DNA from: Dethiobacter sp.
GTDB lineage: Bacteria > Bacillota > Dethiobacteria > DTU022 > UBA8154
Assembly: GCA_020725665.1 (NCBI GenBank)
Contig: DYEO01000033.1
Span: forward strand, 5,398 to 69,397
Reading direction: 5' to 3'
DNA: 64,000 nt
Part shown: in pieces, positions 7,167 to 21,125 of the stretch
How positions within the stretch are numbered: position 1 is the stretch's first letter
Layout of the letters: every line of letters begins with the position of its first letter
The notes under the pieces: model-generated
Seen by the model: the letters and a program-made list of their open reading frames with translations, nothing else
What the model was told of the DNA's origin: nothing
The model's database searches: none
Made by a program: the position numbers and the translations under genes

Positions 7167-9020
7167 TCAATCACCGCTGTTATTTTTTTGCATGCTCACC
7201 TGTTTGTTATAACGATCCCGTTCACCTTTTTGCAGGAACTTTTTGCGTAAACGAATACTTTTGGGTGTGACCTCCACCAGTTCATCATCGCCGATAAACT
7301 CTATGGCTTCTTCCAGGGAAAGGAGACAGGGTTCTTTCAGCCTGACCGTGTCATCGGAACCGCTGGCCCGCATGTTGGTAAGATGTTTACGCTTGCAGAC
7401 GTTTACTTCCACATCCCTGTCCCTGTTGTTGACACCCACAATCATACCTTCGTAAACCCTGGTACCCGGCTCAATAAAGAGAGTGCCCCGTTCTTCCGCC
7501 TGCAGCATGCCATAGGTGACAGCCTCTCCGGTCTCCCAGGCAATGAGGGAGGCCTGGAAACGTGTTTGGATCTCACCCTTATAGGGCTCATAACCATGAA
7601 AACTGTAATTCATAACACCCCTGCCCCGCGTCTCCGTTAAAAACTCAGAACGAAATCCCACAAGTCCCCGGGCCGGCACCAGGTAATCCATGCGTATATC
7701 CCCGCCACCGGCCGGTACCAGGTTGACCAGTTCACCCTTCCGCTTCCCCAGGCTTTCCATAACAACTCCCTGCGCATCTTCCGGGATATGGATAATCAGG
7801 TATTCCACCGGCTCCATCAGGACACCATCAATGGTTTTACAGATGACCTCCGGTTTTGAAACCTGCAGTTCATAACCCTCGCGGCGCATATTCTCGATGA
7901 GAATGGAAAGGTGCAGTTCTCCCCGGCCGGAAACTTTGAATTGATCGGGGCTTTCTGTCTCCTCAACGCGCAGGCTCACATTGGCATTAAGTTCTTTAAA
8001 AAGACGTTCTCTCAATTTTCGGGAAGTTACATACTCCCCCTCCTGTCCGGCAAAGGGACTGTTGTTAACCATAAACGTCATGCGCAGAGTGGGTTCATCA
8101 ACTATAATCACCGGCAGTTGTTCAGGGTGCAGCGGATCGGCAAGGGTCTCACCAATATTAATGTTATCCAGACCCACGATAGCCACTACATCTCCGGCAA
8201 CCGCTTTTTCAACCTCAATTTTTTTCAAGCCGCTGTAACCGAAAATCTTTGCCGTCTTTCCTTTTGTCAGGGATCCGTCCGGGTGTATAATTACAACCTG
8301 TTCCCCCTGACTGATAGTACCTCGCTTAATCATGCCGATGGCATATTTACCAAGATAGTTATCATGTTCCAGGTTGGATACAAGCATCTGGAAAGGCCCG
8401 TTAAGATTACTGTCAGGTGGTTTTACATAATTAATAACAGTTTCAAAGAGTGGTTCCATACTTATACGATCATCAGACCAGTTTCTGATGGCCCAACCCT
8501 CTTTGGCGGATGTATAAAGCACCGGAAAGTCCAATTGCTGATCGTTTGCTCCCAGTTCAAAGAAAAGATCGATTACTTCATTTAGAACTTCCCCGGGACG
8601 GGCATTGGGCCGGTCCGCTTTGTTGATTACGACGAGGGGTTGCAGATTTGCCTGCAGGGCCTTGTTTAAAACAAACTTGGTCTGTGACATGGGACCCTCG
8701 GATGCGTCTATAATCAACAGGACACCATTGACCATACGGAGAGCCCTTTCCACCTCACCCCCAAAATCGGCATGACCGGGGGTATCCACAATATTTATTT
8801 TTATTCCCTTATATACTACCGCCGTATTCTTGGCCAGAATGGTGATGCCCCGTTCCCGTTCCAGGTCAATAGAATCCATAACTCTTTCGACAACAGGGGC
8901 TTTATCGTGAAACATACCGCTTTGGCTCAGCAAACAGTCCACCAGGGTAGTTTTACCGTGATCGACGTGGGCAATAATGGCAATGTTGCGAATCTGATCC
9001 TTGGACAGGCTTTCAAACAT
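7167..9020 (-). CDS. typA: translational GTPase TypA/BipA
   Basis: 617-aa ORF with AHVDHGKTTLVD, DTPGHADF and NKADR G-motifs. It is TypA-like over its full length. Confidence 0.95.
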   Translation of the reverse strand: MFESLSKDQIRNIAIIAHVDHGKTTLVDCLLSQSGMFHDKAPVVERVMDSIDLERERGITILAKNTAVVYKGIKINIVDTPGHADFGGEVERALRMVNGVLLIIDASEGPMSQTKFVLNKALQANLQPLVVINKADRPNARPGEVLNEVIDLFFELGANDQQLDFPVLYTSAKEGWAIRNWSDDRISMEPLFETVINYVKPPDSNLNGPFQMLVSNLEHDNYLGKYAIGMIKRGTISQGEQVVIIHPDGSLTKGKTAKIFGYSGLKKIEVEKAVAGDVVAIVGLDNINIGETLADPLHPEQLPVIIVDEPTLRMTFMVNNSPFAGQEGEYVTSRKLRERLFKELNANVSLRVEETESPDQFKVSGRGELHLSILIENMRREGYELQVSKPEVICKTIDGVLMEPVEYLIIHIPEDAQGVVMESLGKRKGELVNLVPAGGGDIRMDYLVPARGLVGFRSEFLTETRGRGVMNYSFHGYEPYKGEIQTRFQASLIAWETGEAVTYGMLQAEERGTLFIEPGTRVYEGMIVGVNNRDRDVEVNVCKRKHLTNMRASGSDDTVRLKEPCLLSLEEAIEFIGDDELVEVTPKSIRLRKKFLQKGERDRYNKQVSMQKNNSGD

Positions 9021-10891: not shown

Positions 10892-13254
10892 TCAGTCTAC
10901 CTGTGAAAAAAAAGCGCTGACAATGGGAAAGCTCTCTTTTTGCCTCACGCGATACACGGGTTCTTCCCAGAAATCCCAACTGTAAAATGGTAATGTAAAG
11001 GCAAAACCATCCCCCTTAACGTTACGTGGGAGATAATCAAGGATCAGGCCATCCCATTCCCCGGGGCTTATGCTGTCTTCACCAACAAAATATTGCCCCC
11101 GCTCTTCCGGCAGGTAATAGGAAAGGGCACAGAAGTAGATGCCGGGGGTGGTGGAGGTCTGCAGGGTATCACGCAGAGGTGCATCACTGTATTCCCGCGG
11201 GTCATCCATTACCTGTCGTGTAGAAGGATCCGTAAAATTCAGAAGTGCCCAGGGCAGCCGCAGCTCCACCCTGTTTTTTCCCCCGTTGATATGTAACATG
11301 GCAAGAGAGTTGTAATCCTGACTTTCCGGGTTAAAATTGCCCCGGGGAAGAACGCTTTGATTGCTGTAAACAGGCGGGAAAACCTGCCCGTCCCGGGATA
11401 TGCGCTCCCGGTTGACCAGGGGGCGGATAGCCTCCCATTTTTCATTAGTATCTCCAGCCAATGCAGCCCCCCCGGCAGAGGAAAAACGCAGCTCCCCCCG
11501 GTTGTAGGATGAGGTTGCCAGCAGGTAAGCTTCTTCATCGCCGGAGATAATAATCAAAAATTCCAGCCCATGGGGCACCTTTTCACCTCGCAGCGGCAGG
11601 CGTGGATTCCCCCCACCCGGGTTATAAGTATCCAGGCCAATCATCAATCCGGTGCCGGGTGGCAACAAAGAACCGCTTACTCCGCCGGCTTGGTCGTTTC
11701 CATCTGCAACCAGTTCCAGACCGAGGTAGAGAAATGCTTCATTATGCTCAACAAGCAGGTTTTGCAGTACAACTGCCGGAAATGCTTGCGCCGCCTGTTG
11801 AGGCGCTGCCTGAGCCGGGACAGTTGCCTGCGTGTAAAGAGGTTCCCCCCTGAGAAAGGGTATGCCGGCCGGCTCCATGGCCAGCAGGCCGTAGTTTTGT
11901 TCGGGGCAGAGGGCGTTATGCCAGTAAGGGTTACGCTCGAAAGGCACAATATACGGCTCGGTAATCCACGTTTTCTTTACCCATTCATCGAACAGTTCAA
12001 AGATAACCCCGCCCGCATAACCCTCTTGTAAAACCGCATCCATCATACGCACAATCATTTCTCCCTGCTGTCTTTCTGTTACCCCCCCGTGATCGAAACC
12101 CTGGGGGTGGACGTGAGCCGTGGCCAAGCCGGTGGCCATGCCAAACTCCGCGACGAGCGCCGGGTAAGGGGGGTGCAGGGCCATAAAATCACGCAGGTAT
12201 CCCCCATAGCGAAGAATGCCTTCATGATCATGATAAGCATTGTACGAGGGCTCGTTGTTCATGAAATCGGGGTAATTGGGGTAGATATGATAACAGCCAA
12301 AAAACCCTGCCACATTCAACTCACCCTGCTGCAGGTGATTCGGATTAAGATCTGCCATATCATTATATTCCTTTGATTTTTCACATAGATGTTCCATTCG
12401 GTAGGGTGATCGAGAGGGTCGAGGGTTGGCCAGCTCACAAAAGAAACAGGATGCTGCCAGCCATAGTTTTCTGTACTGTAGGAAAGGGTATAATCACACA
12501 TCATGGCCAGCCATATTTCCGTCGCGCTGGCTCCGGCGACTGCCTGCACAAAGTCACCGTTATAAACCTTGAGGTTGCTGTTGATCTCGTCGTTTTGCAA
12601 AACAACGTGCGGCTCCATTTCATTACCGATCAGCAAGCCCAGCAGGAAAGGGGAAACGTCCACCCCATAGCTGCCAAAAGCCCTGCCGCGCCTGGCACGG
12701 ATTTCTGCATTGCCGTGGAGGGCGTCCACAACATGGCGAATTTCCTGCATGTAATTCTCCATATAATCGGGGTCAAAATAATTGCCACCTGGGATATCCT
12801 CGTCCGGCCAGATCTCCTGCAGCAGCCAGATTCTTTTATGCGGCGCCGCGGAGATATTATATTCCCGAAAAACCTGGTAAAATAACGGGTCCAATAACGT
12901 ATACAGGCGTATTGTATTGGCATTAAGAGCGGCCGCCTGCTCAAGCCAGAGCCGGTAAACATCCCTGTCCATGGGAAACTGGGTAAAATACTTGCCCGGC
13001 AGGGCCGTGCCGATATTCACTCCTTTTACAATGAACGGCATCCAGCCTTCACCTGCAAACACTTCAAAATAACGTCCACTGGTGCGGGCGGTCAGCATGA
13101 CCCCGCCCATTTCGGCAATCTGGGGCAAGAACTCTGGCACTTTGGAAGAACATCCGATAAATAACGCGCCGCCTGCAAGGATAGAGGCAACCAGCAGGAT
13201 AGCAGCAATAATGGTGCTTACAAAGCGTTTTGACTTTGTTTTCGTCGATTTCAT
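10892..13254 (-). pseudogene. clan GH-A-like glycoside hydrolase lipoprotein, split by a 1-nt frameshift (or sequencing error) at a homopolymer
   Basis: The 312-aa (12316-13254) and 501-aa (10892-12397) ORFs overlap in different frames. A lipobox LFIGC follows the signal peptide. The NE acid/base motif (LLIGNEMEP) is in the upstream ORF and the nucleophile-like AEFG is in the downstream ORF. Adding one A to the A5 run (T5 at 12377-12381 on plus) fuses them into about 787 aa. Confidence 0.55.
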
Positions 13255-13321: not shown

Positions 13322-14089
13322 TCAGATACGCAGCCCTCTTCCGAGAGGGCATCTTGTTTTAGGCAGGAAACACAGCCGCAGGCTGCCATAAACCGTGGCC
13401 AATATTTTTAACTTGCTGGCGCTTTTTTTAATACCGTATTTAACCGTAAATGGTACTTCTTCTATTGTGCCGGCAAGGGGGGCCAGCTTCAAAAGCAATT
13501 CCACAGTTGCCGAGAAGGTCCGGGAAGCTAAAAAAGGCCATTTACCGGCGGCTAGGGCCTCGCTGACCAGCGAACTGCGGTATGCACGGAAGTTTACTGT
13601 GTAATCTGTAACGCCGCGCAGTGGGAATGCTATGCGGTAAAACAACTTCGCTCCAATACTCAAAAAGCTGCGCAAGAAGGGTACTCCGTCCTGTCCTCCC
13701 CCTTTTGTAAAGCGTGAAGCAATGGCAATATCGGCACCGGCACGAATCTTTTCAACAAGTTCGGCAATAATCTCTCCCGGGTGAGTGGCATCCGCATCCA
13801 TGGTAACAATACAAGTGGAACGGGCCTTAAGTGCCTCTGCAAAACCTGTGATAACCGCCTCCCCCAGGCCCCTGTTTTCCGTATGGGAAACAATGATTGC
13901 TCTGCCGCTTGCAAGGACCCATTTGGTAGCAAGATCGAGGGTATCATCACTGCTTCCATCGTTAACGATAATCAGGATGAAATCACACCCCGGCGGCATT
14001 GAAATTTCGTCAAACATTTTTTGTAAAGCAGGAATTGATTCTGCCTCGTTATACATGGGGAGAATTATTGCAACAAGCTCGTCCGGCAT
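13322..14089 (-). CDS. GT2 polyprenyl-phosphate glycosyltransferase (Dpm1/ArnC/CsbB-like)
   Basis: 255-aa ORF with ILPMYNEAESI, VNDGSSDDT and MDADATH (DxD) motifs. It is soluble-type, with no C-terminal TM bundle. Confidence 0.75.
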   Translation of the reverse strand: MPDELVAIILPMYNEAESIPALQKMFDEISMPPGCDFILIIVNDGSSDDTLDLATKWVLASGRAIIVSHTENRGLGEAVITGFAEALKARSTCIVTMDADATHPGEIIAELVEKIRAGADIAIASRFTKGGGQDGVPFLRSFLSIGAKLFYRIAFPLRGVTDYTVNFRAYRSSLVSEALAAGKWPFLASRTFSATVELLLKLAPLAGTIEEVPFTVKYGIKKSASKLKILATVYGSLRLCFLPKTRCPLGRGLRI

Positions 14090-14144
14090 TAATAATCACT
14101 CCAATTAATTAAATCTCCACTTTCTTTGAATATCTTATCGCCGG

Positions 14145-14510
14145 TCACTGGTGCAGAAAAAAAACTCCGGCAAGGATCAGAAAAAAACCAACAATTTTAG
14201 TTGCGGTAACCGCCTCTTTAAAAAAAAGGATGGAGAACAAAAATACAATAATATATGAAATACTTATACTCGGGTATGCTTTACTAAGCTCCATACCCGA
14301 AATTACCTTAATCCACAGGACCATACTCGAAATGAAGAATAAGATACCGGTTAAAACCCATGGATTGCGAAATATATGCATAAGCGTATATGGAATTGCC
14401 GGCCATTCCAGGCTGATCTCTCCCATTTTGAGCGTCGCAAATTTTAATAAAAGCTGTCCGCAAGCCCCCAGGAAAACGGAGATAAATAAGAGTATTAAAC
14501 CGGCTTTCAA
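14145..14510 (-). CDS. small 4-TM DMT/SMR-like protein (ArnE/ArnF-like candidate lipid-linked sugar flippase)
   Basis: 121-aa ORF with four hydrophobic helices and an EamA-like half-domain pattern. Its start overlaps the stop of the GT2 synthase gene by 4 nt. Confidence 0.6.
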   Translation of the reverse strand: MKAGLILLFISVFLGACGQLLLKFATLKMGEISLEWPAIPYTLMHIFRNPWVLTGILFFISSMVLWIKVISGMELSKAYPSISISYIIVFLFSILFFKEAVTATKIVGFFLILAGVFFLHQ

Positions 14511-15904
14511 ACTGTTTCGCCACCTTTGTTTTTATTTAAAAACGTACTTGCCCTGGTCAAACGGCGTTTATAACTCCTGAATATTTCCTTCAACTGATCA
14601 ACCGGATACTCCACCCGCCAGCTTTTTTCTTCTGTGAGCACCGTAATAATCCCGGCCAGGCGAAACCAATAAACCATATACCTGTAAAAAGGCAGGATGA
14701 AAACGATCCACCAAATTTTTTTGATTTCACAGCGGTATAAACCGGGGCTGTACTTGTAGACCATGGCAAAGCTGGCGGTATCAAGTATTATATAGCAGAG
14801 CAACAAAATAATCAGGGAGAAAAAAACCGTTTGCATGGAATAGCCGATAAAATACAGGAAAATCAGCAAAAACGTCCAGTTCAGGCGTATCAGCGCCAGC
14901 GTGTGATCGGAGATAAACATACGGCCGATATAGCTGCGCAGATCATGCCAGATGCTCCTTACTTCTTCCCCATGTATGGCGATGGCTTCAATCTCGCCCC
15001 GCTGCCAGCGCAGCCTCTGGGCATATAACTGAGAAATGGAATTGATCGGTTCCACATAGGCGACAGCATCGAGGACGCACCCGACGCGGCGTTTTTGCTT
15101 CTTTTGATCGTTTTTTATATTAAATGTCAGATCCGTATCTTCAGAAACCGTACGGTCCTGGTACATAAATGACTGCAGGAGGGCATCCCGGCGAAAAATG
15201 GAAAAAGCACCGGAAAGGGTAAACAGGGAATCTGTAATCTGTTGGTAGCGGCGGCCGATATTGAATGCGAGCATATATTCGATTATTTCACAATAGTTTA
15301 TCAGGTCAATGAAAGAATAACCTTCCCCAATTTCCTTATCCACCCGGATAAGCCCGGTGGCGGCAGCCAACGAATCGTCTGCTTCGAAAGCTTCCACTAC
15401 CCTCAGCACGGCATTTTTATCCAGCCACGTATCCGAATCAACGTTCATGATGTAAGTGCCGTGACCGTGGTAGATCCCGGCATTTAGGGCAATGGATTTT
15501 CCGGCCCGCTCCATGGAACTCCAGGTCGTCATCATCTCAGGATGCTCAAATTGAAATTCCTGAAATATTTCAAAGCTATTGTCTTCGCTGCCGTTGTTTA
15601 CGCAAACAATCTCAAGCTTATCCTTGGGGTAATTCTGCCTGAAAATGGAATTCAGGCACTGGTAAAGGGTATCTACAGAGTTATGAACAGGAACAACCAC
15701 CGTAACATAAGGGTAAAATTCCATGGCATCGGCATCCGGTGATTTTTCCTTCGCTTTACCGTTTTTCTCTTCGTGTAAAAACAAACCCATAAAACACTTG
15801 GCTGCTGCAGATACATCCACCAACAGCGGCGCCAAAAGCCAGATGCTCCAAAAGAGGAGCAGGCTGATACTTCTGTCCCAAAGAATTTCAAGCACGTTTA
15901 ACAT
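14507..15904 (-). CDS. processive family-2 glycosyltransferase (polysaccharide synthase; XrtG-associated type)
   Basis: 465-aa ORF with an N-terminal TM segment and a GT2 core carrying VPVHNS, DSD, SEDTDL and QRLRWQRGE (QxxRW) motifs. It also has a C-terminal TM bundle. Confidence 0.8.
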   Translation of the reverse strand: MLNVLEILWDRSISLLLFWSIWLLAPLLVDVSAAAKCFMGLFLHEEKNGKAKEKSPDADAMEFYPYVTVVVPVHNSVDTLYQCLNSIFRQNYPKDKLEIVCVNNGSEDNSFEIFQEFQFEHPEMMTTWSSMERAGKSIALNAGIYHGHGTYIMNVDSDTWLDKNAVLRVVEAFEADDSLAAATGLIRVDKEIGEGYSFIDLINYCEIIEYMLAFNIGRRYQQITDSLFTLSGAFSIFRRDALLQSFMYQDRTVSEDTDLTFNIKNDQKKQKRRVGCVLDAVAYVEPINSISQLYAQRLRWQRGEIEAIAIHGEEVRSIWHDLRSYIGRMFISDHTLALIRLNWTFLLIFLYFIGYSMQTVFFSLIILLLCYIILDTASFAMVYKYSPGLYRCEIKKIWWIVFILPFYRYMVYWFRLAGIITVLTEEKSWRVEYPVDQLKEIFRSYKRRLTRASTFLNKNKGGETV

Positions 15905-17087
15905 CTCCCCGTACTTTTTTGATCGAGGGCCGTGTTAGAATATACCAGTAGAGAATAACTATCACAGAGAAAAAGAAAATTCGCCCGAATAAAGTGTGCG
16001 CTACAAAGTTAAAGTTGCGTCCGCCCCAGTATATTATGGAGATAACCAGCATCAGGCGCAGAAGATTAAAAAAAACTAGTGTTGCGGTGCCAAACAGGAT
16101 ATAGTATACTTTCCTGCCGAAGTTGTAGGCTGGATAAAAGAGGACCAGCCCCAGCAAAACAGCAATTTCCAGTAATGCTGAACTTTCAATGTCGATATCC
16201 AGCGTCGTCCAGCTTTCATCAAGTTTTATAAAGACCAGGATTGTTCCGGGAGACTTATCAAAAACGTGGGTGACCACATTGAAGTAATTAAGTATATGGT
16301 GCAAGATCACTCCGGTTCTGTGCTCAACCAGATACTCAATAAAGGAACCCCTGATTACAAGGATAAAAATAAAGGTAAAACCGACAGCACCAAGGATATA
16401 ATAAAGGGGCCAGATGCGGTAACGGTAAAGGGCCGCTGTGGCCACCAGCCAGAATAAGGCAAAAATAATAATGCCGGACCTGTTTCTTACAACTACAGGA
16501 AAAGCTTTCCACTGTACATCGCCTTCAGCGGGCAGGCGGTCGCCCCTAAGCCCGGCAGCGGCGAGATAAAAGCGGATCGGCTGCGCCGGGTAAACATTTA
16601 ATTCGGCCATGGGCAGGTAAAATTCAAAGCCGCTGCCGCCGGCGTCGCTTCGCTGCCCCCACATTCCTTCGTACTCACTGATGAGACTCCCGTCGGATGA
16701 AAAAAGCTTTATCCCCACCAAACCATTGCCATTATCGGGAACATAGAGCAGTTCTGCAAACTTGTCGATGCTGTCTCCATATGACCCGTTGTCATCTATA
16801 TCGAGATAAAGCCTGCAAACGAAGTGTTGGCCCATAGCTATTGGTTTTTTAAGTTTTACAGCAAAGTATAATCTCTGTTCATTCTCGTTGGTACCCCAAT
16901 GCAGTGACTGAAATACGTTGTTCTTATCGGTTTCATCTTTAGGGCTTGTAACAGATGCCCGGCCGTTCCAGTCCTCAAGCTGTCCATCCAGATATATTTT
17001 CTGCATGAAAATTGATCCCGGCGGCCAGATATATATTAAAAACACAAGCGCCAGCGCAATGGCCAGCTTAGCTGCTAATCTGCTCAT
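15888..17087 (-). CDS. exosortase-family (XrtG-like) membrane protein with an N-terminal extracytoplasmic beta-rich domain; the canonical Cys is absent
   Basis: 399-aa ORF. Residues ~205-399 are polytopic and carry the exosortase-like NLLR and AHTLFGR motifs. At the place where exosortases carry CSG the sequence is DIDIESSALLE. The N-terminal ~190 aa has a signal anchor plus a YLDGQLEDW sugar-binding-like module. Confidence 0.55.
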   Translation of the reverse strand: MSRLAAKLAIALALVFLIYIWPPGSIFMQKIYLDGQLEDWNGRASVTSPKDETDKNNVFQSLHWGTNENEQRLYFAVKLKKPIAMGQHFVCRLYLDIDDNGSYGDSIDKFAELLYVPDNGNGLVGIKLFSSDGSLISEYEGMWGQRSDAGGSGFEFYLPMAELNVYPAQPIRFYLAAAGLRGDRLPAEGDVQWKAFPVVVRNRSGIIIFALFWLVATAALYRYRIWPLYYILGAVGFTFIFILVIRGSFIEYLVEHRTGVILHHILNYFNVVTHVFDKSPGTILVFIKLDESWTTLDIDIESSALLEIAVLLGLVLFYPAYNFGRKVYYILFGTATLVFFNLLRLMLVISIIYWGGRNFNFVAHTLFGRIFFFSVIVILYWYILTRPSIKKVRGDVKRA

Positions 17088-20000
17088 TTCTTTTCACATC
17101 TTTATCTAATCTTTTAAGAAAAATCAGGCCTCCAACCAACATTAACGGAGAAAGGAGGGAAAGGATTGAACCCCAAAGGTAAACGGGGGTTCGTTCCAGA
17201 ACTATTGTAATTTCATGTTCACCGGCAGGCAGATCCATACGCAGCAGATTTTCAAACGTAGTGTACGGCCAGGCATGACCATCGATCTCCACCTTGATCC
17301 CGTCCAGCGCAGCGACTGGGACAACTACATTAACATCCCGGTCGATACTGTATTTCATCACGTAACCGCTTTCCGTAGCCTGATAAGCATCTAGAGGAAT
17401 CAACTCTTCACAAAAATATTCCCTCTCTAAACCAAATATTTCTTCAATTATTTGCAGCGCTTGCGGGTCCTTGGTCAGGAAGGTGTGATATGAGAGATTG
17501 CCCCCCAAAAACCAAACTTTGTGTCCCTCAACCAGCTTGTATCCCAATACAGGGGCTTTAACACCATAATAATCGAAATATAGCTCCTCTGCATCCAACC
17601 CCTGTGGAACATATGTTTTCCAAAGCTCAAAGTCCTTCGGAGCAAAAGGTTTCAATAAAAAGCTCTTACCGCTATTGTCGAAAAGCTCGAGCTGGCCGCG
17701 CAGGGTAACCGTCTCACCATAAACACCTAAAAATTCAGGTTGCTTGGCCAATACGTTTTCCGGCAGCCCGGAGAGCTCAACAAAAACCTCACCACCGGCA
17801 GAGATATAATTACGAATAAGCTGTTCTGCTTTAGTTTTAGCCCACCATTCTGTTCCGGAAAGAATTATTTTAGGGTATTTTATTAAATCATCCAGTGAAT
17901 ACCTGTCAAGATAAGGGGACGTCCCCATCTCTACGTTGGGGAACTGGATGGCAATCGTTCCCGCATGTCTGCCGATAACCAGTGCGTCATTATTTTTCAC
18001 GACCAGGTAAGGAAAATCAATAGCCCCGTGCCAGAGGCTGATCTCATCAATATTTACAATATGCTCATAAGCCGCTTTTCCGGCCATCTCCGCAAAAATT
18101 TGCGGCTCCTCAATCACATCGTTTTTAACCAGCAGATCCGTTGCGCCAAGCAGCACACAGGATCGGAACAAAAAGGGATAATACTGATATTCCAGTCCCA
18201 TGTTAAGGAGCATAATGTTTTGTGAAGTTGTAGCCCCCTGCCAGGCCCAACCGAAAACCTGCTCCCTGCCTGCCGTTTCAGAAAACAGGAAGGAAGGGGC
18301 CGAGCCAAGGCGGCTTAAGTCAACAGTAGCAATGCGCCATCCGGGCGCAGCCTTCAGGTACTCCGTACCCTCCAGCAGTATATACGATTTGGCACGTGTA
18401 AAGGCAAGCAAACGGACGGAAAAAAAACAATCAATTAAAAACAAAAAAGCAAGCAGGCATATTATGACAACCTTTTTCAAACTGCCTGCTGAAAGTGAGA
18501 ATCTTTCTATAGAAGGGGAAAAAGCCATGCTTGATATGATTAGAGCCAGTGCGGCAAAACTGGAAAACCTAAGGGGCCAAAGCAGGTGGCTTAAAGGCAT
18601 AAGTAAAAAAAAGAGGCGCGCAGAAGGGAAAGTAATAATAACTAAAACCACGCCGCAAATTGCCAGGCTTTTTACCCAGGGCAACCTGGTACGCCATCCC
18701 AAACATGTAACACCAATGGCAAATAACAGGCTGACACCCCAGTAAAACGTTTCCCGATCAGAAAAACGATTAAAAGGATTAAGTGAAATTGCGGAAGGTA
18801 CAAACTGGACAACGGCACGGACAGCCTCCGGATTGATCACGGTAATTCCACCGCTAAGGCTTGGCAGCAACCACCAACCTGCAGATATAATGCCAACAAA
18901 AACAATAAAAAATCCCCGCAACAAATCTCTTAGCCGGCAGCCGCCAAAAGCCCAGAAAAACAGGGCGAATAAGGCAAGGCAAATGCAGTATACCGCCCCA
19001 ATCATGGCATGGCAGAGGATAACCACATGTATGAGTAAAACCGTGAGAACAACCGTCAGGGAAATCTTACGTTCTTCCAGAATTTTTAAATAAAGAATAA
19101 ACAACAATGGTAACAGGGCCGTTGCCAGGACCCGGGGAAGGTTCCCTTCAGAAAAAGCAACCCGCACGTTATCGATCCAGACCGACCAGATTATTCCTGC
19201 CAGGGTGGCGGGCCAAATGCCAATCCTGCGGGCGAAAAATAGCAGAGATAATCCTCCCAGGAGCGCGCAACCAAAAACATAATAGTTGCCGGCCATGAAA
19301 ATGTCGGTACTGAAAAACCTCAGCAGGGCAATCATGTAGTAGGGCAGCGGCGCCCAGTAGCGAAAAGGCTGGGCGCCATTATACCAGTATTCAGTGAACT
19401 GAGGAAAGAAATCGCCCTGCATGATTTGTTGAAAAAGAAATTCAGCTTTAAAAAGATGGCCCCAGGTATCGGACCCCCAGGGGTAGTGCAGTCTGAATTG
19501 GGGGGTAATGATCTGGTAATAAGCGATGAAGGCTATGAGCATTATTAACAGCGCATGTAAGGCGTAGCGGTAAGCAGGATAATCATAACTAGTTAACCCG
19601 GCGTTCAGGGTTTCATCAGGCTGAGCTGCCCGTTTCGCTGTTTGTTTTCTGCGCTTATCCCTCTGAGAGGATACACGTTTTTCTTTATCATCAGTGTTAT
19701 CTGTGATGTTATCTTTGGTAGCGGCAATTTCTTGTTCCGCCGCCACAGGGATATTGTCAAATTCAGGATTGCGCCGTGTTACCTCAATGCCTTTTGTGGG
19801 GGTTTCCCACACCGCCAAATTGCCCAGCACCAGGCCAAAATCCCGAAAAATATCCTCAAACCGGTTAAAGAAAACCATGGCCATGTTTTCTGTAGTCGGC
19901 TGAACGATATTAAAGGGATACTGCTCATTTAAAACCGTTTTTTCATAGCAGGTAATAACAGAATTAATTGCCTCCATGATGTTGGCAAAAGGTATCTGCT

Positions 20001-20502
20001 CGCTTTTTTCTGCAGGGATTTTTATTTTTATATGAACCTGCCAGGAATGGGCATGGACCGGCCCCTGTTTTTCACCAAAGACAACATAGTGCCGCGCGTT
20101 GAGGAAGGAAACAAGCTGAATAGTGTAGGCTGAGGAATCAACAAGGAATCCCTCCGCCTGCTCAGCAGGAATAATTCCACCGCGCTGCCCCATTGCCCCG
20201 GTACAAGTGATAACCGTTTTCCCTGTCGACTCGTTTGTCGGATCGTCACAAACCAGGCGTTGATAAAAAGAAAGTTCTTCTTTAACCTGCAAAATTTCTT
20301 CTTCAATCAGAGTTATCCTGGTTTTGCTGAGAGCAACCTTCGCCTCGGCATCCATGAGGATACGTCCCGCTTCCAAAGCGGCTTTTTGCTTTATCTCTTC
20401 CGCAAGCTCATTTGCTTCGAGGATTGTCCGTTCAATGTTTTTGCTTTCCTTTTCTTTCTCCTCAATGCGGGCACGCAAAGCATTACATTTTTCCTCGCTC
20501 AA
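17068..20502 (-). CDS. coiled-coil + QueD/6-pyruvoyl-tetrahydropterin-synthase-like domain fused to a large polytopic (PTPS-related, GT-C/YfhO-like) membrane protein
   Basis: 1144-aa ORF. Residues ~1-85 are a heptad-rich coiled coil. Residues ~125-245 read F..ARH..VHAHSWQVHI..LNE..PTTENMA..VWETPT and align by eye with QueD. A Lys/Arg/Asp-rich linker follows, then many TM helices (~310-720), a large exported domain, and a terminal TM helix plus basic tail. Confidence 0.6.
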   Translation of the reverse strand: MSEEKCNALRARIEEKEKESKNIERTILEANELAEEIKQKAALEAGRILMDAEAKVALSKTRITLIEEEILQVKEELSFYQRLVCDDPTNESTGKTVITCTGAMGQRGGIIPAEQAEGFLVDSSAYTIQLVSFLNARHYVVFGEKQGPVHAHSWQVHIKIKIPAEKSEQIPFANIMEAINSVITCYEKTVLNEQYPFNIVQPTTENMAMVFFNRFEDIFRDFGLVLGNLAVWETPTKGIEVTRRNPEFDNIPVAAEQEIAATKDNITDNTDDKEKRVSSQRDKRRKQTAKRAAQPDETLNAGLTSYDYPAYRYALHALLIMLIAFIAYYQIITPQFRLHYPWGSDTWGHLFKAEFLFQQIMQGDFFPQFTEYWYNGAQPFRYWAPLPYYMIALLRFFSTDIFMAGNYYVFGCALLGGLSLLFFARRIGIWPATLAGIIWSVWIDNVRVAFSEGNLPRVLATALLPLLFILYLKILEERKISLTVVLTVLLIHVVILCHAMIGAVYCICLALFALFFWAFGGCRLRDLLRGFFIVFVGIISAGWWLLPSLSGGITVINPEAVRAVVQFVPSAISLNPFNRFSDRETFYWGVSLLFAIGVTCLGWRTRLPWVKSLAICGVVLVIITFPSARLFFLLMPLSHLLWPLRFSSFAALALIISSMAFSPSIERFSLSAGSLKKVVIICLLAFLFLIDCFFSVRLLAFTRAKSYILLEGTEYLKAAPGWRIATVDLSRLGSAPSFLFSETAGREQVFGWAWQGATTSQNIMLLNMGLEYQYYPFLFRSCVLLGATDLLVKNDVIEEPQIFAEMAGKAAYEHIVNIDEISLWHGAIDFPYLVVKNNDALVIGRHAGTIAIQFPNVEMGTSPYLDRYSLDDLIKYPKIILSGTEWWAKTKAEQLIRNYISAGGEVFVELSGLPENVLAKQPEFLGVYGETVTLRGQLELFDNSGKSFLLKPFAPKDFELWKTYVPQGLDAEELYFDYYGVKAPVLGYKLVEGHKVWFLGGNLSYHTFLTKDPQALQIIEEIFGLEREYFCEELIPLDAYQATESGYVMKYSIDRDVNVVVPVAALDGIKVEIDGHAWPYTTFENLLRMDLPAGEHEITIVLERTPVYLWGSILSLLSPLMLVGGLIFLKRLDKDVKRNEQISS

Positions 20503-20606: not shown

Positions 20607-21125
20607 TCAGGATGAATCCCTTTTACGTAGTATATTTTTAATAATTTCCGTTGATTTCTCATTTTCAAGCAAAGTCAGGTTGGGTGCATGCTCCTTGGGT
20701 AAAACGCCCACACTTTCAATGGAAAACCGGTATTCATCGAGCAGTTCTTTAAACTCCTGCTTAAAACGTTCAAGTTTTTCCTGCAACCGTTCCAATTCCT
20801 GTTTTTTATCCTGAAGTTCCTTTTCCGTTGTTTCCAACATGACCTTTGCCTGCCGGCGTGCTTCCTCCTCAAGCTGAAGCGCTTTTTTCTGTGCCAAAAC
20901 CATGACATCAACAATGGACTGTTCCCTGGAAATATAATTATCCAATTTTGACTGCAGAGCATTTACTTCTGCTTCAGACTGTTTCAATTCGGCCTTTGCT
21001 TTTTCAATGTCAGCCCGTAAAATGACAGTTTCCTCCTGGTAAACACTGTTAAGCCGGTTAATCTCATTTTGTACTTCTTCAGGTTTATAGCCGAACAATG
21101 CTTTTTTAAATGATTTGGCCATCAC
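20607..21125 (-). CDS. DivIVA-domain coiled-coil protein
   Basis: 172-aa ORF. The N-terminal FKKALFGYKPEEVQNEINRL matches the DivIVA F..a.rGY...eV motif. The remainder is coiled coil. Confidence 0.7.
   Translation of the reverse strand: MMAKSFKKALFGYKPEEVQNEINRLNSVYQEETVILRADIEKAKAELKQSEAEVNALQSKLDNYISREQSIVDVMVLAQKKALQLEEEARRQAKVMLETTEKELQDKKQELERLQEKLERFKQEFKELLDEYRFSIESVGVLPKEHAPNLTLLENEKSTEIIKNILRKRDSS

Follow-up and report, generated by a model that had tools for sequence, protein, structure and literature searches.

The exosortase family is defined by three motifs, C-x-G, N-x-x-R, and H-x-x-x-G, with the Cys as the proposed nucleophile (Haft 2006, PMC1569441). The EpsH/XrtA-PEP-CTERM and ArtA-PGF-CTERM systems have these motifs at the outer ends of successive helices in a multi-pass membrane protein, whose counterpart is a tripartite signal at the C terminus of its substrates, and they are linked to exopolysaccharide loci (Haft 2006, PMC1569441). 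Each such enzyme serves many substrates. Conserved residues of ArtA are reported to be critical for activity (Abdul Halim 2018, cited in PMC7157517). The XrtG/Firmicu-CTERM system (TIGR03110, TIGR04145, TIGR03111, and TIGR03112) is another known kind, defined bioinformatically, and the one biological paper in the literature searched that mentions it lists the locus as up-regulated in Lactiplantibacillus plantarum (PMC12854382). Here we describe a gene from a 64,000-nucleotide stretch of Dethiobacter sp. DNA (contig DYEO01000033.1; the whole stretch is called the window) that encodes, in one polypeptide of 399 amino acids (aa), a homologue of the Firmicu-CTERM-type partner protein joined to an XrtG without its Cys.

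The window protein has the predicted multi-pass layout and the three motif positions of EpsH/XrtA and ArtA, and its system likewise has a tripartite C-terminal signal and a link to exopolysaccharide loci. It lacks the Cys that is invariant in the C-x-G motif of those families, and it stands 1:1 with its presumed substrate, to which it is fused. With the XrtG/Firmicu-CTERM system it shares cassette content, gene order, XrtG homology over the full length, the E-x-S-G-x-x-E, N-x-x-R, and H-x-x-x-G motifs, and, here in fused form, one dedicated partner per cassette. It differs from that system in being a single polypeptide, in having lost the transmembrane (TM) helix of the sorting signal, in the change of Cys to Ser (Asn in relatives), in an XrtG score just under the cutoff, and in a partner domain too divergent for the TIGR04145 cutoff. 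Despite the missing Cys feature, the fused Cys-less XrtG is clearly homologous to and syntenic with the known XrtG system, of which it is an undescribed natural variant; no paper on Cys-less or substrate-fused exosortases was found in the literature searched.

The fused gene and its two halves

The gene is an open reading frame (ORF) of 399 codons with an ATG start (coordinates of all features are in Table 1), and it overlaps its upstream neighbor by 20 nucleotides and its downstream neighbor by 17. Its product matches the exosortase/archaeosortase signature TIGR04178 with 44.2 bits, against an NCBIfam cutoff of 23, residues 297 to 384 aligning to profile positions 2 to 92 of 97. A first-pass annotation, made from the DNA letters, had placed the protein in the exosortase family while allowing that it might not score as a member at all; it does score as one. 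The XrtG profile TIGR03110 matches residues 206 to 391 with 100.6 bits, narrowly below the curated cutoff of 102.75. Nothing relevant came from a Pfam scan of the whole fused protein (PF09721 is recorded for a few relatives but not for the window protein), and a PDB sequence search with the fused protein returned no solved relative. Some fused relatives are publicly labeled "exosortase family protein XrtG" or "hypothetical protein".

We searched a profile built from 27 aligned full-length homologues against 1.84 billion representative proteins and obtained 417 relatives. Among these, 79 match with the XrtG half only, many of them stand-alone proteins of about 195 to 210 aa. A profile of residues 1 to 228 matched 63 proteins that carry no XrtG domain match, with scores of about 100 to 207 bits and lengths of mostly 199 to 275 aa. 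In these stand-alone counterparts of the N-terminal half, a cleavable-looking signal peptide and an ectodomain are followed by the motif DR[VC]PDxGDIQWSP[IV]P, then by a TM helix, and finally by a tail rich in Lys and Arg that closes the chain; these last three elements make up a tripartite sorting signal at the C terminus. In NCBIfam, TIGR04145 (Firmicu_CTERM) is their highest-ranking match and the only one to recur consistently, a significant match below the cutoff that was found for 18 of 34 members with a best E value of 1.8e-6; the scores run from 12 to 34 bits against a cutoff of 50, with the member at the split locus L031 at 34 bits (E value, 2.7e-8). The N-terminal half of the window protein gave no match to TIGR04145, and because this direct match is absent, its homology to Firmicu-CTERM-type proteins is drawn from transitive profile evidence.

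By these profile comparisons, the fused ectodomain is homologous to the sorting-signal protein of Firmicu-CTERM type that belongs to the cassette itself and is the presumed substrate of XrtG. The first-pass annotation had seen in it a fused, sugar-binding-like ectodomain; it is not an accessory add-on to an exosortase, and its homologues are encoded by a separate, adjacent gene in sister lineages. A dedicated Firmicu-CTERM partner of the window XrtG is present only as this fused half. The split homologues have the complete tripartite signal at the protein end, whereas the window protein has lost the TM helix and runs on into XrtG.

The gene order of split loci is decisive for this identification. 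We collected such loci from five GTDB genomes (L027 to L031, including Syntrophomonas palmitatica at L027) and three metagenome contigs (L034 to L036). They run from a gene for a DivIVA-like protein through a PTPS/PTPS_related gene, the gene for the N-terminal half, and a gene for an XrtG of 193 to 203 aa to a TIGR03111-like family-2 glycosyltransferase (GT2) gene, often followed by an EamA gene and a second GT2 gene. The window has the same order, save that the N-terminal half and XrtG are one gene, and so the N-terminal half corresponds to a former separate partner gene. All eight split Bacillota XrtGs carry Cys. L031 has a tandem pair of partner-protein genes, at 7208-7891 and 7938-8669.

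We then aligned concatenated split pairs with fused proteins to resolve the anatomy of the fusion. The fused proteins are 21 to 24 residues short, and the gap coincides exactly with the sorting signal's TM helix. On the N-terminal side of this gap, the motif P186-P197, PAEGDVQWKAFP, is kept as the counterpart of the split DR[VC]PDxGDIQWSP[IV]P, and within it P186, D190, W193, F196, and P197 are invariant across the fused clade. There follows a short basic remnant, VVVRNRSG, comparable to the ...VRNKTT end of the L028 partner, and then the retained first helix of XrtG (IIIFALFWLVATAALYRYRIW, compared with IIWLLSITAWALIGYYLYSHRIW). At the other end of the protein, residues 1 to 25 terminate in WPPGS, which is typical of the fused clade, where split homologues have an AxA site instead.

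A simple read-through fusion is ruled out, as one TM helix is precisely missing. The AlphaFold secondary structure has helices at residues 204-222, 226-245, 302-316, 323-355, and 357-385, with an extracytoplasmic insert of a helix and a beta-sheet at 249-298. Together with hydropathy and the positive-inside rule, it suggests that the first TM helix of XrtG runs from outside to inside, and the last three helices fit a model with the three motifs near the outer ends of consecutive TM helices. Under this predicted topology, we infer that a plain read-through would invert the enzyme, while the loss of one helix keeps its orientation.

Substitution at the cysteine column

To determine which residue occupies the position of the nucleophile, we used a single profile alignment of 103 XrtG domains. 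Around this column, the consensus is [IV]-E-C-S-[GA]-x-x-E, and the column itself has 67 Cys, 25 Ser, 10 Asn, and 1 Thr. The window protein has S302 here, encoded by AGT at 16182-16184, with S303 at 16179-16181 and E301 to A304 at 16176-16187. This profile alignment bears out the first-pass assignment of S302 to the catalytic Cys position, as it does the retained Arg and His contexts, with R344 in FFNLLR and H364 in AHTLFGR. The register agrees with that of the split L027 XrtG, which scores 109.3 bits, above the TIGR03110 cutoff, and has Cys at the position equivalent to S302; in both proteins the Cys-column residue sits 5 positions past the start of the TIGR04178 match. Whether all XrtG members share the Ser had been left as a point to check; they do not, as the majority have Cys, and Ser or Asn is found in the fused clade and a few others.

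The rest of the site is intact. E301, E307, and N341 are invariant in all 103 domains and S303 is present in 99. The three family motifs thus read S-S-A, N-L-L-R, and H-T-L-F-G in the window protein, which lacks the Cys feature and retains the other two. As the first-pass annotation had it, the only Cys of the protein is C91 in the extracytoplasmic domain (codon at 16815-16817). We considered whether some other Cys of the membrane core could be the nucleophile and rejected this: there is no such Cys in the window protein, and the one that relatives carry at column 309 is not conserved. A Cys-free stretch of 200 membrane residues is unremarkable by chance; the part that is not chance is the substitution at the nucleophile column throughout a clade.

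The whole fused clade, whose isolates include S. wolfei subsp. methylbutyratica JCM 14075 and Desulforamulus putei DSM 12395, has lost the Cys. Of its 26 genome loci, 11 have Ser and 15 have Asn at the Cys column, and the 29 fused cluster representatives and the window protein likewise have Ser or Asn and never Cys. Cys is encoded by TGY, the fused Ser by AGY (12/12), and Asn by AAY (14/14), a chain of single-base steps; the codons appear to trace a path from TGY through AGY to AAY. In a neighbor-joining tree, the fused clade is monophyletic and lies nearest to the split Cys clade, with only P0033, which has Thr at this column, branching closer. Asn is restricted to fused proteins and is spread over at least three branches of this rough tree. 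The Ser and Asn types are alike in the conserved motif and in E301, S303, E307, N341, R344, H364, G368, and R369. Because Ser and Asn interchange freely while pocket and motif are otherwise constant, residue 302 would not be the nucleophile in either type. A Ser nucleophile, one of the readings offered in the first-pass annotation, is weakened by the 15 of 26 fused relatives with Asn in a site that is otherwise unchanged.

We are highly confident of the history that these comparisons outline, in which a substrate-type protein was joined to XrtG and the Cys column was changed. One of the fused gene's neighbors in the window is frameshifted, and the fusion could in principle be an assembly or frameshift artifact as well. 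We give this explanation practically no weight: the same continuous ORF is found in the 26 genome loci, which come from different metagenome-assembled genomes (MAGs) and isolates, and in the 29 cluster representatives, and in every case the 21 to 24 residues are deleted and the Cys column has Ser or Asn. That independent assemblies contain the same ORF effectively refutes an artifact.

Possible roles of the fused protein

The reading we favor, on sequence comparisons and with about an even chance of being right, is that of an anchor and docking module with a binding pocket and without Cys-dependent cleavage. Sister Bacillota have adjacent genes for a partner with a tripartite signal and then an E-C-S-G XrtG. 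In the fused lineage, the stop codon has gone and so has the signal's TM helix, such that ectodomain and motif now lead directly into the predicted N-out first helix of XrtG, and the nucleophile Cys has been replaced, by Ser in the window protein and by Asn in many relatives. In the favored reading, the XrtG half would no longer cleave or transpeptidate the sorting signal by means of a Cys. It would instead fix the DOMON/CBM9-like ectodomain permanently to the membrane and act as its docking module, thereby positioning it beside the co-transcribed TIGR03111 glycan synthase and the PTPS-related membrane protein. Since Glu, Asn, Arg, and His are still strictly conserved, their pocket probably retains a binding role; its ligand could be the motif in cis or the glycan or lipid acceptor to which the ancestral enzyme passed the protein. 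The strongest point in favor of this reading is that Ser and Asn interchange while everything else is constant. A non-catalytic scaffold, as first suggested from the DNA, is thus favored in a modified form, with a binding pocket added to the anchor.

There are precedents for such a loss among rhomboids, where iRhoms and derlins have lost the nucleophile and conserved the fold and the client-binding surface, suggesting a binding or scaffolding role. The parallel would be one of analogy: rhomboids are an unrelated family, and the presumed client of the window protein is covalently fused to it.

Several observations weigh against the anchor-and-docking role. First, N341, R344, H364, E301, E307, and S303 are strictly kept although the minimum pairwise identity in the clade is 36 to 40%, which is more conservation than a pure anchor would require. 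Second, another, independent fusion clade keeps the Cys (P0161 and P0184 to P0187, 383 to 413 aa; loci L037/L038), and fusion therefore does not force the loss of catalysis, leaving a self-processing precursor viable. Third, unfused Ser-type XrtGs of Chloroflexota adjoin partners that have an intact motif, TM helix, and basic tail, at L032 (8576-9295; a Dehalococcoidia MAG) and L033 (8564-9301; Anaerolinea thermolimosa). The Ser codon is TCC in both, marking a Cys-to-Ser change that was independent of the fused clade and occurred outside Bacillota, and the pairing with complete signals indicates that Ser may be catalytically competent in the XrtG family. Finally, no experimental study of XrtG was found in the literature searched.

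The first three of these observations lend support to the main rival role, in which the fused protein is a precursor that processes itself: Ser302 or the invariant Ser303, with His364 and Arg344, would act at the retained motif to cleave or transfer the protein's own ectodomain. With the substrate tethered in cis and a single turnover required, even a weaker nucleophile would suffice. The active site apart from residue 302 is strictly conserved and the motif is retained, the Cys-keeping clade demonstrates that enzyme and substrate can be fused with the nucleophile intact, the Chloroflexota proteins pair Ser with intact substrate signals, and S303 is nearly universal among XrtG domains. However, Asn, which is incapable of attacking a remote peptide bond, has come to occupy position 302 in the majority of fused loci, apparently several independent times and without a compensating change, and there has been no reversion to Cys within the fused clade. 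Cys-to-Ser changes inactivate sortase A, which also counts against this explanation. From the sequences, we regard self-processing as possible but unlikely.

The Cys-keeping fusion clade arose from the "DYECSG" branch of XrtG (P0187 has DFECAG), and its gene lies at 8001-9173 in L037/L038, in a cassette of PTPS_related, fusion, and GT2 genes followed by MBOAT and polysaccharide deacetylase genes. Its proteins have the same parts as the window protein (signal, Firmicu-CTERM-like ectodomain, one TM helix, and XrtG) in the same cassette, but they differ in their independent origin, in the Cys, and in a motif before the TM helix that reads ...ITISTASTFP. We had considered as a general rule that fusion to a substrate explains the loss of Cys, and dropped it because this clade keeps its Cys. 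Many other XrtGs bear unrelated N-terminal ectodomains and keep Cys.

Further fusions join other parts of the cassette. P0040, P0064, and P0085 (1060 to 1389 aa) are PTPS and PTPS_related proteins with a Firmicu-CTERM-like domain at the C terminus, and P0033 (554 aa) joins a PTPS domain to XrtG. Recurrent fusion among the cassette parts supports a single complex of the PTPS_related protein, the N-terminal domain, and XrtG.

The retained motif, along with the presence of several cassettes in some genomes (L002/L015, L016/L024, and L022/L023), would also fit processing of the fused protein in trans by a Cys-bearing exosortase encoded elsewhere, its own XrtG half being the leaving anchor. We consider this very improbable. 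A genome scan gave no split Cys-type locus in any genome with a fused locus, the 64-kb window has none, and the invariant Arg, His, and Glu would be unexplained in a mere leaving group.

We also asked what the ectodomain itself resembles. The first-pass annotation had called it a CBM9-type beta-sandwich on the basis of YLDGQLEDW, LYFAVKL, and LYLDIDDNG, which begin at residues 32, 73, and 93. An AlphaFold model of the domain by itself is confident (predicted local distance difference test score, 90.3; predicted template modeling score, 0.87). Its best Foldseek match in the PDB is human dopamine beta-hydroxylase (4zel_A), with an E value of 0.017, a probability of 0.98, and a template modeling score of 0.42; an ethylbenzene dehydrogenase chain, 2ivf_C, has the same template modeling score of 0.42. 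No match of the domain model reached an E value of 0.001 or better, CBM9 was absent from its top 50, and the full-length model gave generic beta-sandwich noise only.

The dopamine beta-hydroxylase DOMON domain, the 2IVF subunit, the cytochrome domain of cellobiose dehydrogenase, and, less closely, CBM9-2 (1I8A) have the DOMON fold in common, and DOMON domains bind heme or sugar (PMC4846438). The best structural matches of the ectodomain are thus with the DOMON superfamily, which takes in the dopamine beta-hydroxylase DOMON domain, an ethylbenzene dehydrogenase subunit, and CBM9, and they are sub-significant. At the level of that superfamily, the suggested CBM9 likeness has this weak structural support, but it is not backed by Pfam, in which no CBM9 or DOMON match appeared up to an E value of 10. 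An acidic loop at D96-D108, D-I-D-D-N-G-S-Y-G-D-S-I-D (16764-16802, reverse strand), is kept in fused and split homologues as DxNxNGxYxDxxD and looks from its sequence like a calcium-binding (metal-binding) loop.

The cassette and the meaning of the fusion

The fused gene is in a standard XrtG cassette (Table 1).

Table 1. Features of the fused gene and its neighbors in the window (residues are those of the fused protein)
Feature	Residues	Positions	Strand	Remarks
Whole fused gene		15888-17087	(-)	399 aa; Firmicu-CTERM-like ectodomain protein joined to Cys-less XrtG
N-terminal hydrophobic signal or anchor	1-25	17013-17087	(-)	Helix 2-20
Extracytoplasmic beta-sandwich domain	26-185	16533-17012	(-)	Homologous to stand-alone 225-245-aa proteins beside XrtG elsewhere
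Retained signature motif of former sorting signal, PAEGDVQWKAFP	186-197	16497-16532	(-)	
Junction VVVRNRSG	198-205	16473-16496	(-)	Aligns with split-substrate basic tails (RKRKTA / VRNKTT)
XrtG (exosortase-family) membrane domain	206-399	15891-16472	(-)	
E301-S302-S303-A304-L-L-E307	301-307	16167-16187	(-)	Counterpart of the E-C-S-G-x-x-E / C-x-G motif
N341-L-L-R344	341-344	16056-16067	(-)	N-x-x-R motif; N in 103/103 and R in 102/103 XrtG domains; R344 codon at 16056-16058
H364-T-L-F-G368-R369	364-369	15981-15998	(-)	H-x-x-x-G motif; H in 99/103 XrtG domains; H364 codon at 15996-15998
PTPS-related membrane protein		17068-20502	(-)	1144 aa; upstream; PTPS domain at about residues 131-242 of this protein
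TIGR03111 XrtG-associated family-2 glycosyltransferase		14507-15904	(-)	465 aa; downstream; 370.2 bits, cutoff 363.95
Small EamA / ArnE-ArnF-like membrane protein		14145-14510	(-)	121 aa; conserved in many related cassettes
Second GT2		13322-14089	(-)	255 aa; sub-threshold likeness to PgfS/ArnC-like polyprenyl-phosphate sugar synthases; conserved in many related cassettes
DivIVA-like coiled-coil protein		20607-21125	(-)	172 aa; directly upstream of the cassette, also in most related loci

The upstream membrane protein matches PF10131 (PTPS_related) with 522 bits over residues 380 to 1006 and TIGR03112 with 70.0 bits against a cutoff of 69.35; a PDB sequence search with it returned no solved relative. 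The downstream TIGR03111 GT2 is a probable processive synthase, given its likeness to PgaC, IcaA, and NodC. Residues 3 to 77 of the PTPS-related protein form a weak DivIVA-like segment, and the DivIVA-like parts of the locus could be a hint that the machinery is localized to poles or septa. By analogy, the polyprenyl-phosphate-type GT2 and the ArnE/F-like protein (13322-14510), together with the large membrane protein (17068-20502), recall the ArnC/ArnEF/ArnT three-component type of extracytoplasmic glycosylation, a resemblance that we infer from the cassette parts.

This setting bears on one more explanation, a form of which the first-pass annotation had also offered. In it, the target of the XrtG pocket, as substrate or as ligand, would be the cassette's glycan or a lipid-linked intermediate rather than a protein; the Cys would be dispensable because the main task of the family in this cassette is to handle polysaccharide, and the ectodomain would guide the polymer. 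E301, E307, and N341 are more conserved across XrtG than the Cys, the coupling to a processive-type GT2, an ArnE/F-like protein, and a polyprenyl-phosphate-type GT2 is tight, and the ectodomain weakly resembles a superfamily of sugar or heme binders. However, about 89% of XrtG domains outside the fused clade keep Cys and the remainder have almost all Ser, the classical tripartite sorting signal of the adjacent partner points to ancestral protein processing, and the fold match is not significant. On balance, this explanation seems improbable to us.

Beyond the second GT2 gene, 12316-13254 (312 aa) and 10892-12397 (501 aa), both on the reverse strand, are halves of one gene that in relatives is a single ORF of about 720 to 740 aa (L002 at 14948-17167, L006, L011, and L013). 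The frame shift falls between positions 12367 and 12394, where ...DHPTEW precedes it and YNDMADLN... follows, and the window copy is either a pseudogene or carries a sequencing indel. The encoded N terminus resembles a lipoprotein signal (...LAGGALFIGC), the gene is often near the XrtG cassette, and its product had no Pfam or NCBIfam match. L002 and L015 are two complete fused cassettes about 16 kb apart on MAG contig JAGVAS010000056.1, with the XrtG fusion of L015 frameshifted.

Exosortases are widespread and biochemically poorly characterized, and their pairing with substrates rests on co-occurrence. Fusion of a predicted enzyme to its predicted single substrate is Rosetta-stone evidence for such a pairing, here in a protein from which the proposed nucleophile has been removed while the rest of the site is still under selection. 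We think it doubtful that the Glu/Asn/Arg/His pocket has an essential Cys-independent activity, for example in binding or transferring a glycan or lipid acceptor or in organizing the synthase complex, on the premise that the Asn and Ser forms are fully functional. If it does, the model of the exosortase as a cysteine transpeptidase would be incomplete for the XrtG branch, and the fusion would be direct genetic evidence that XrtG and its Firmicu-CTERM partner are a 1:1 physical pair. The split-Cys, fused-Cys, split-Ser, fused-Ser, and fused-Asn proteins are a graded series of natural mutants within one type of cassette; the split-Cys and the three fused versions are close relatives whose cassettes are identical in other respects. 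In anaerobic Bacillota, for instance syntrophs and organisms like Dethiobacter, this series could address whether the surface protein needs cleavage in order to work, which ligand the Arg/His/Glu pocket has, and in what way the protein cooperates with the adjacent polysaccharide synthase.

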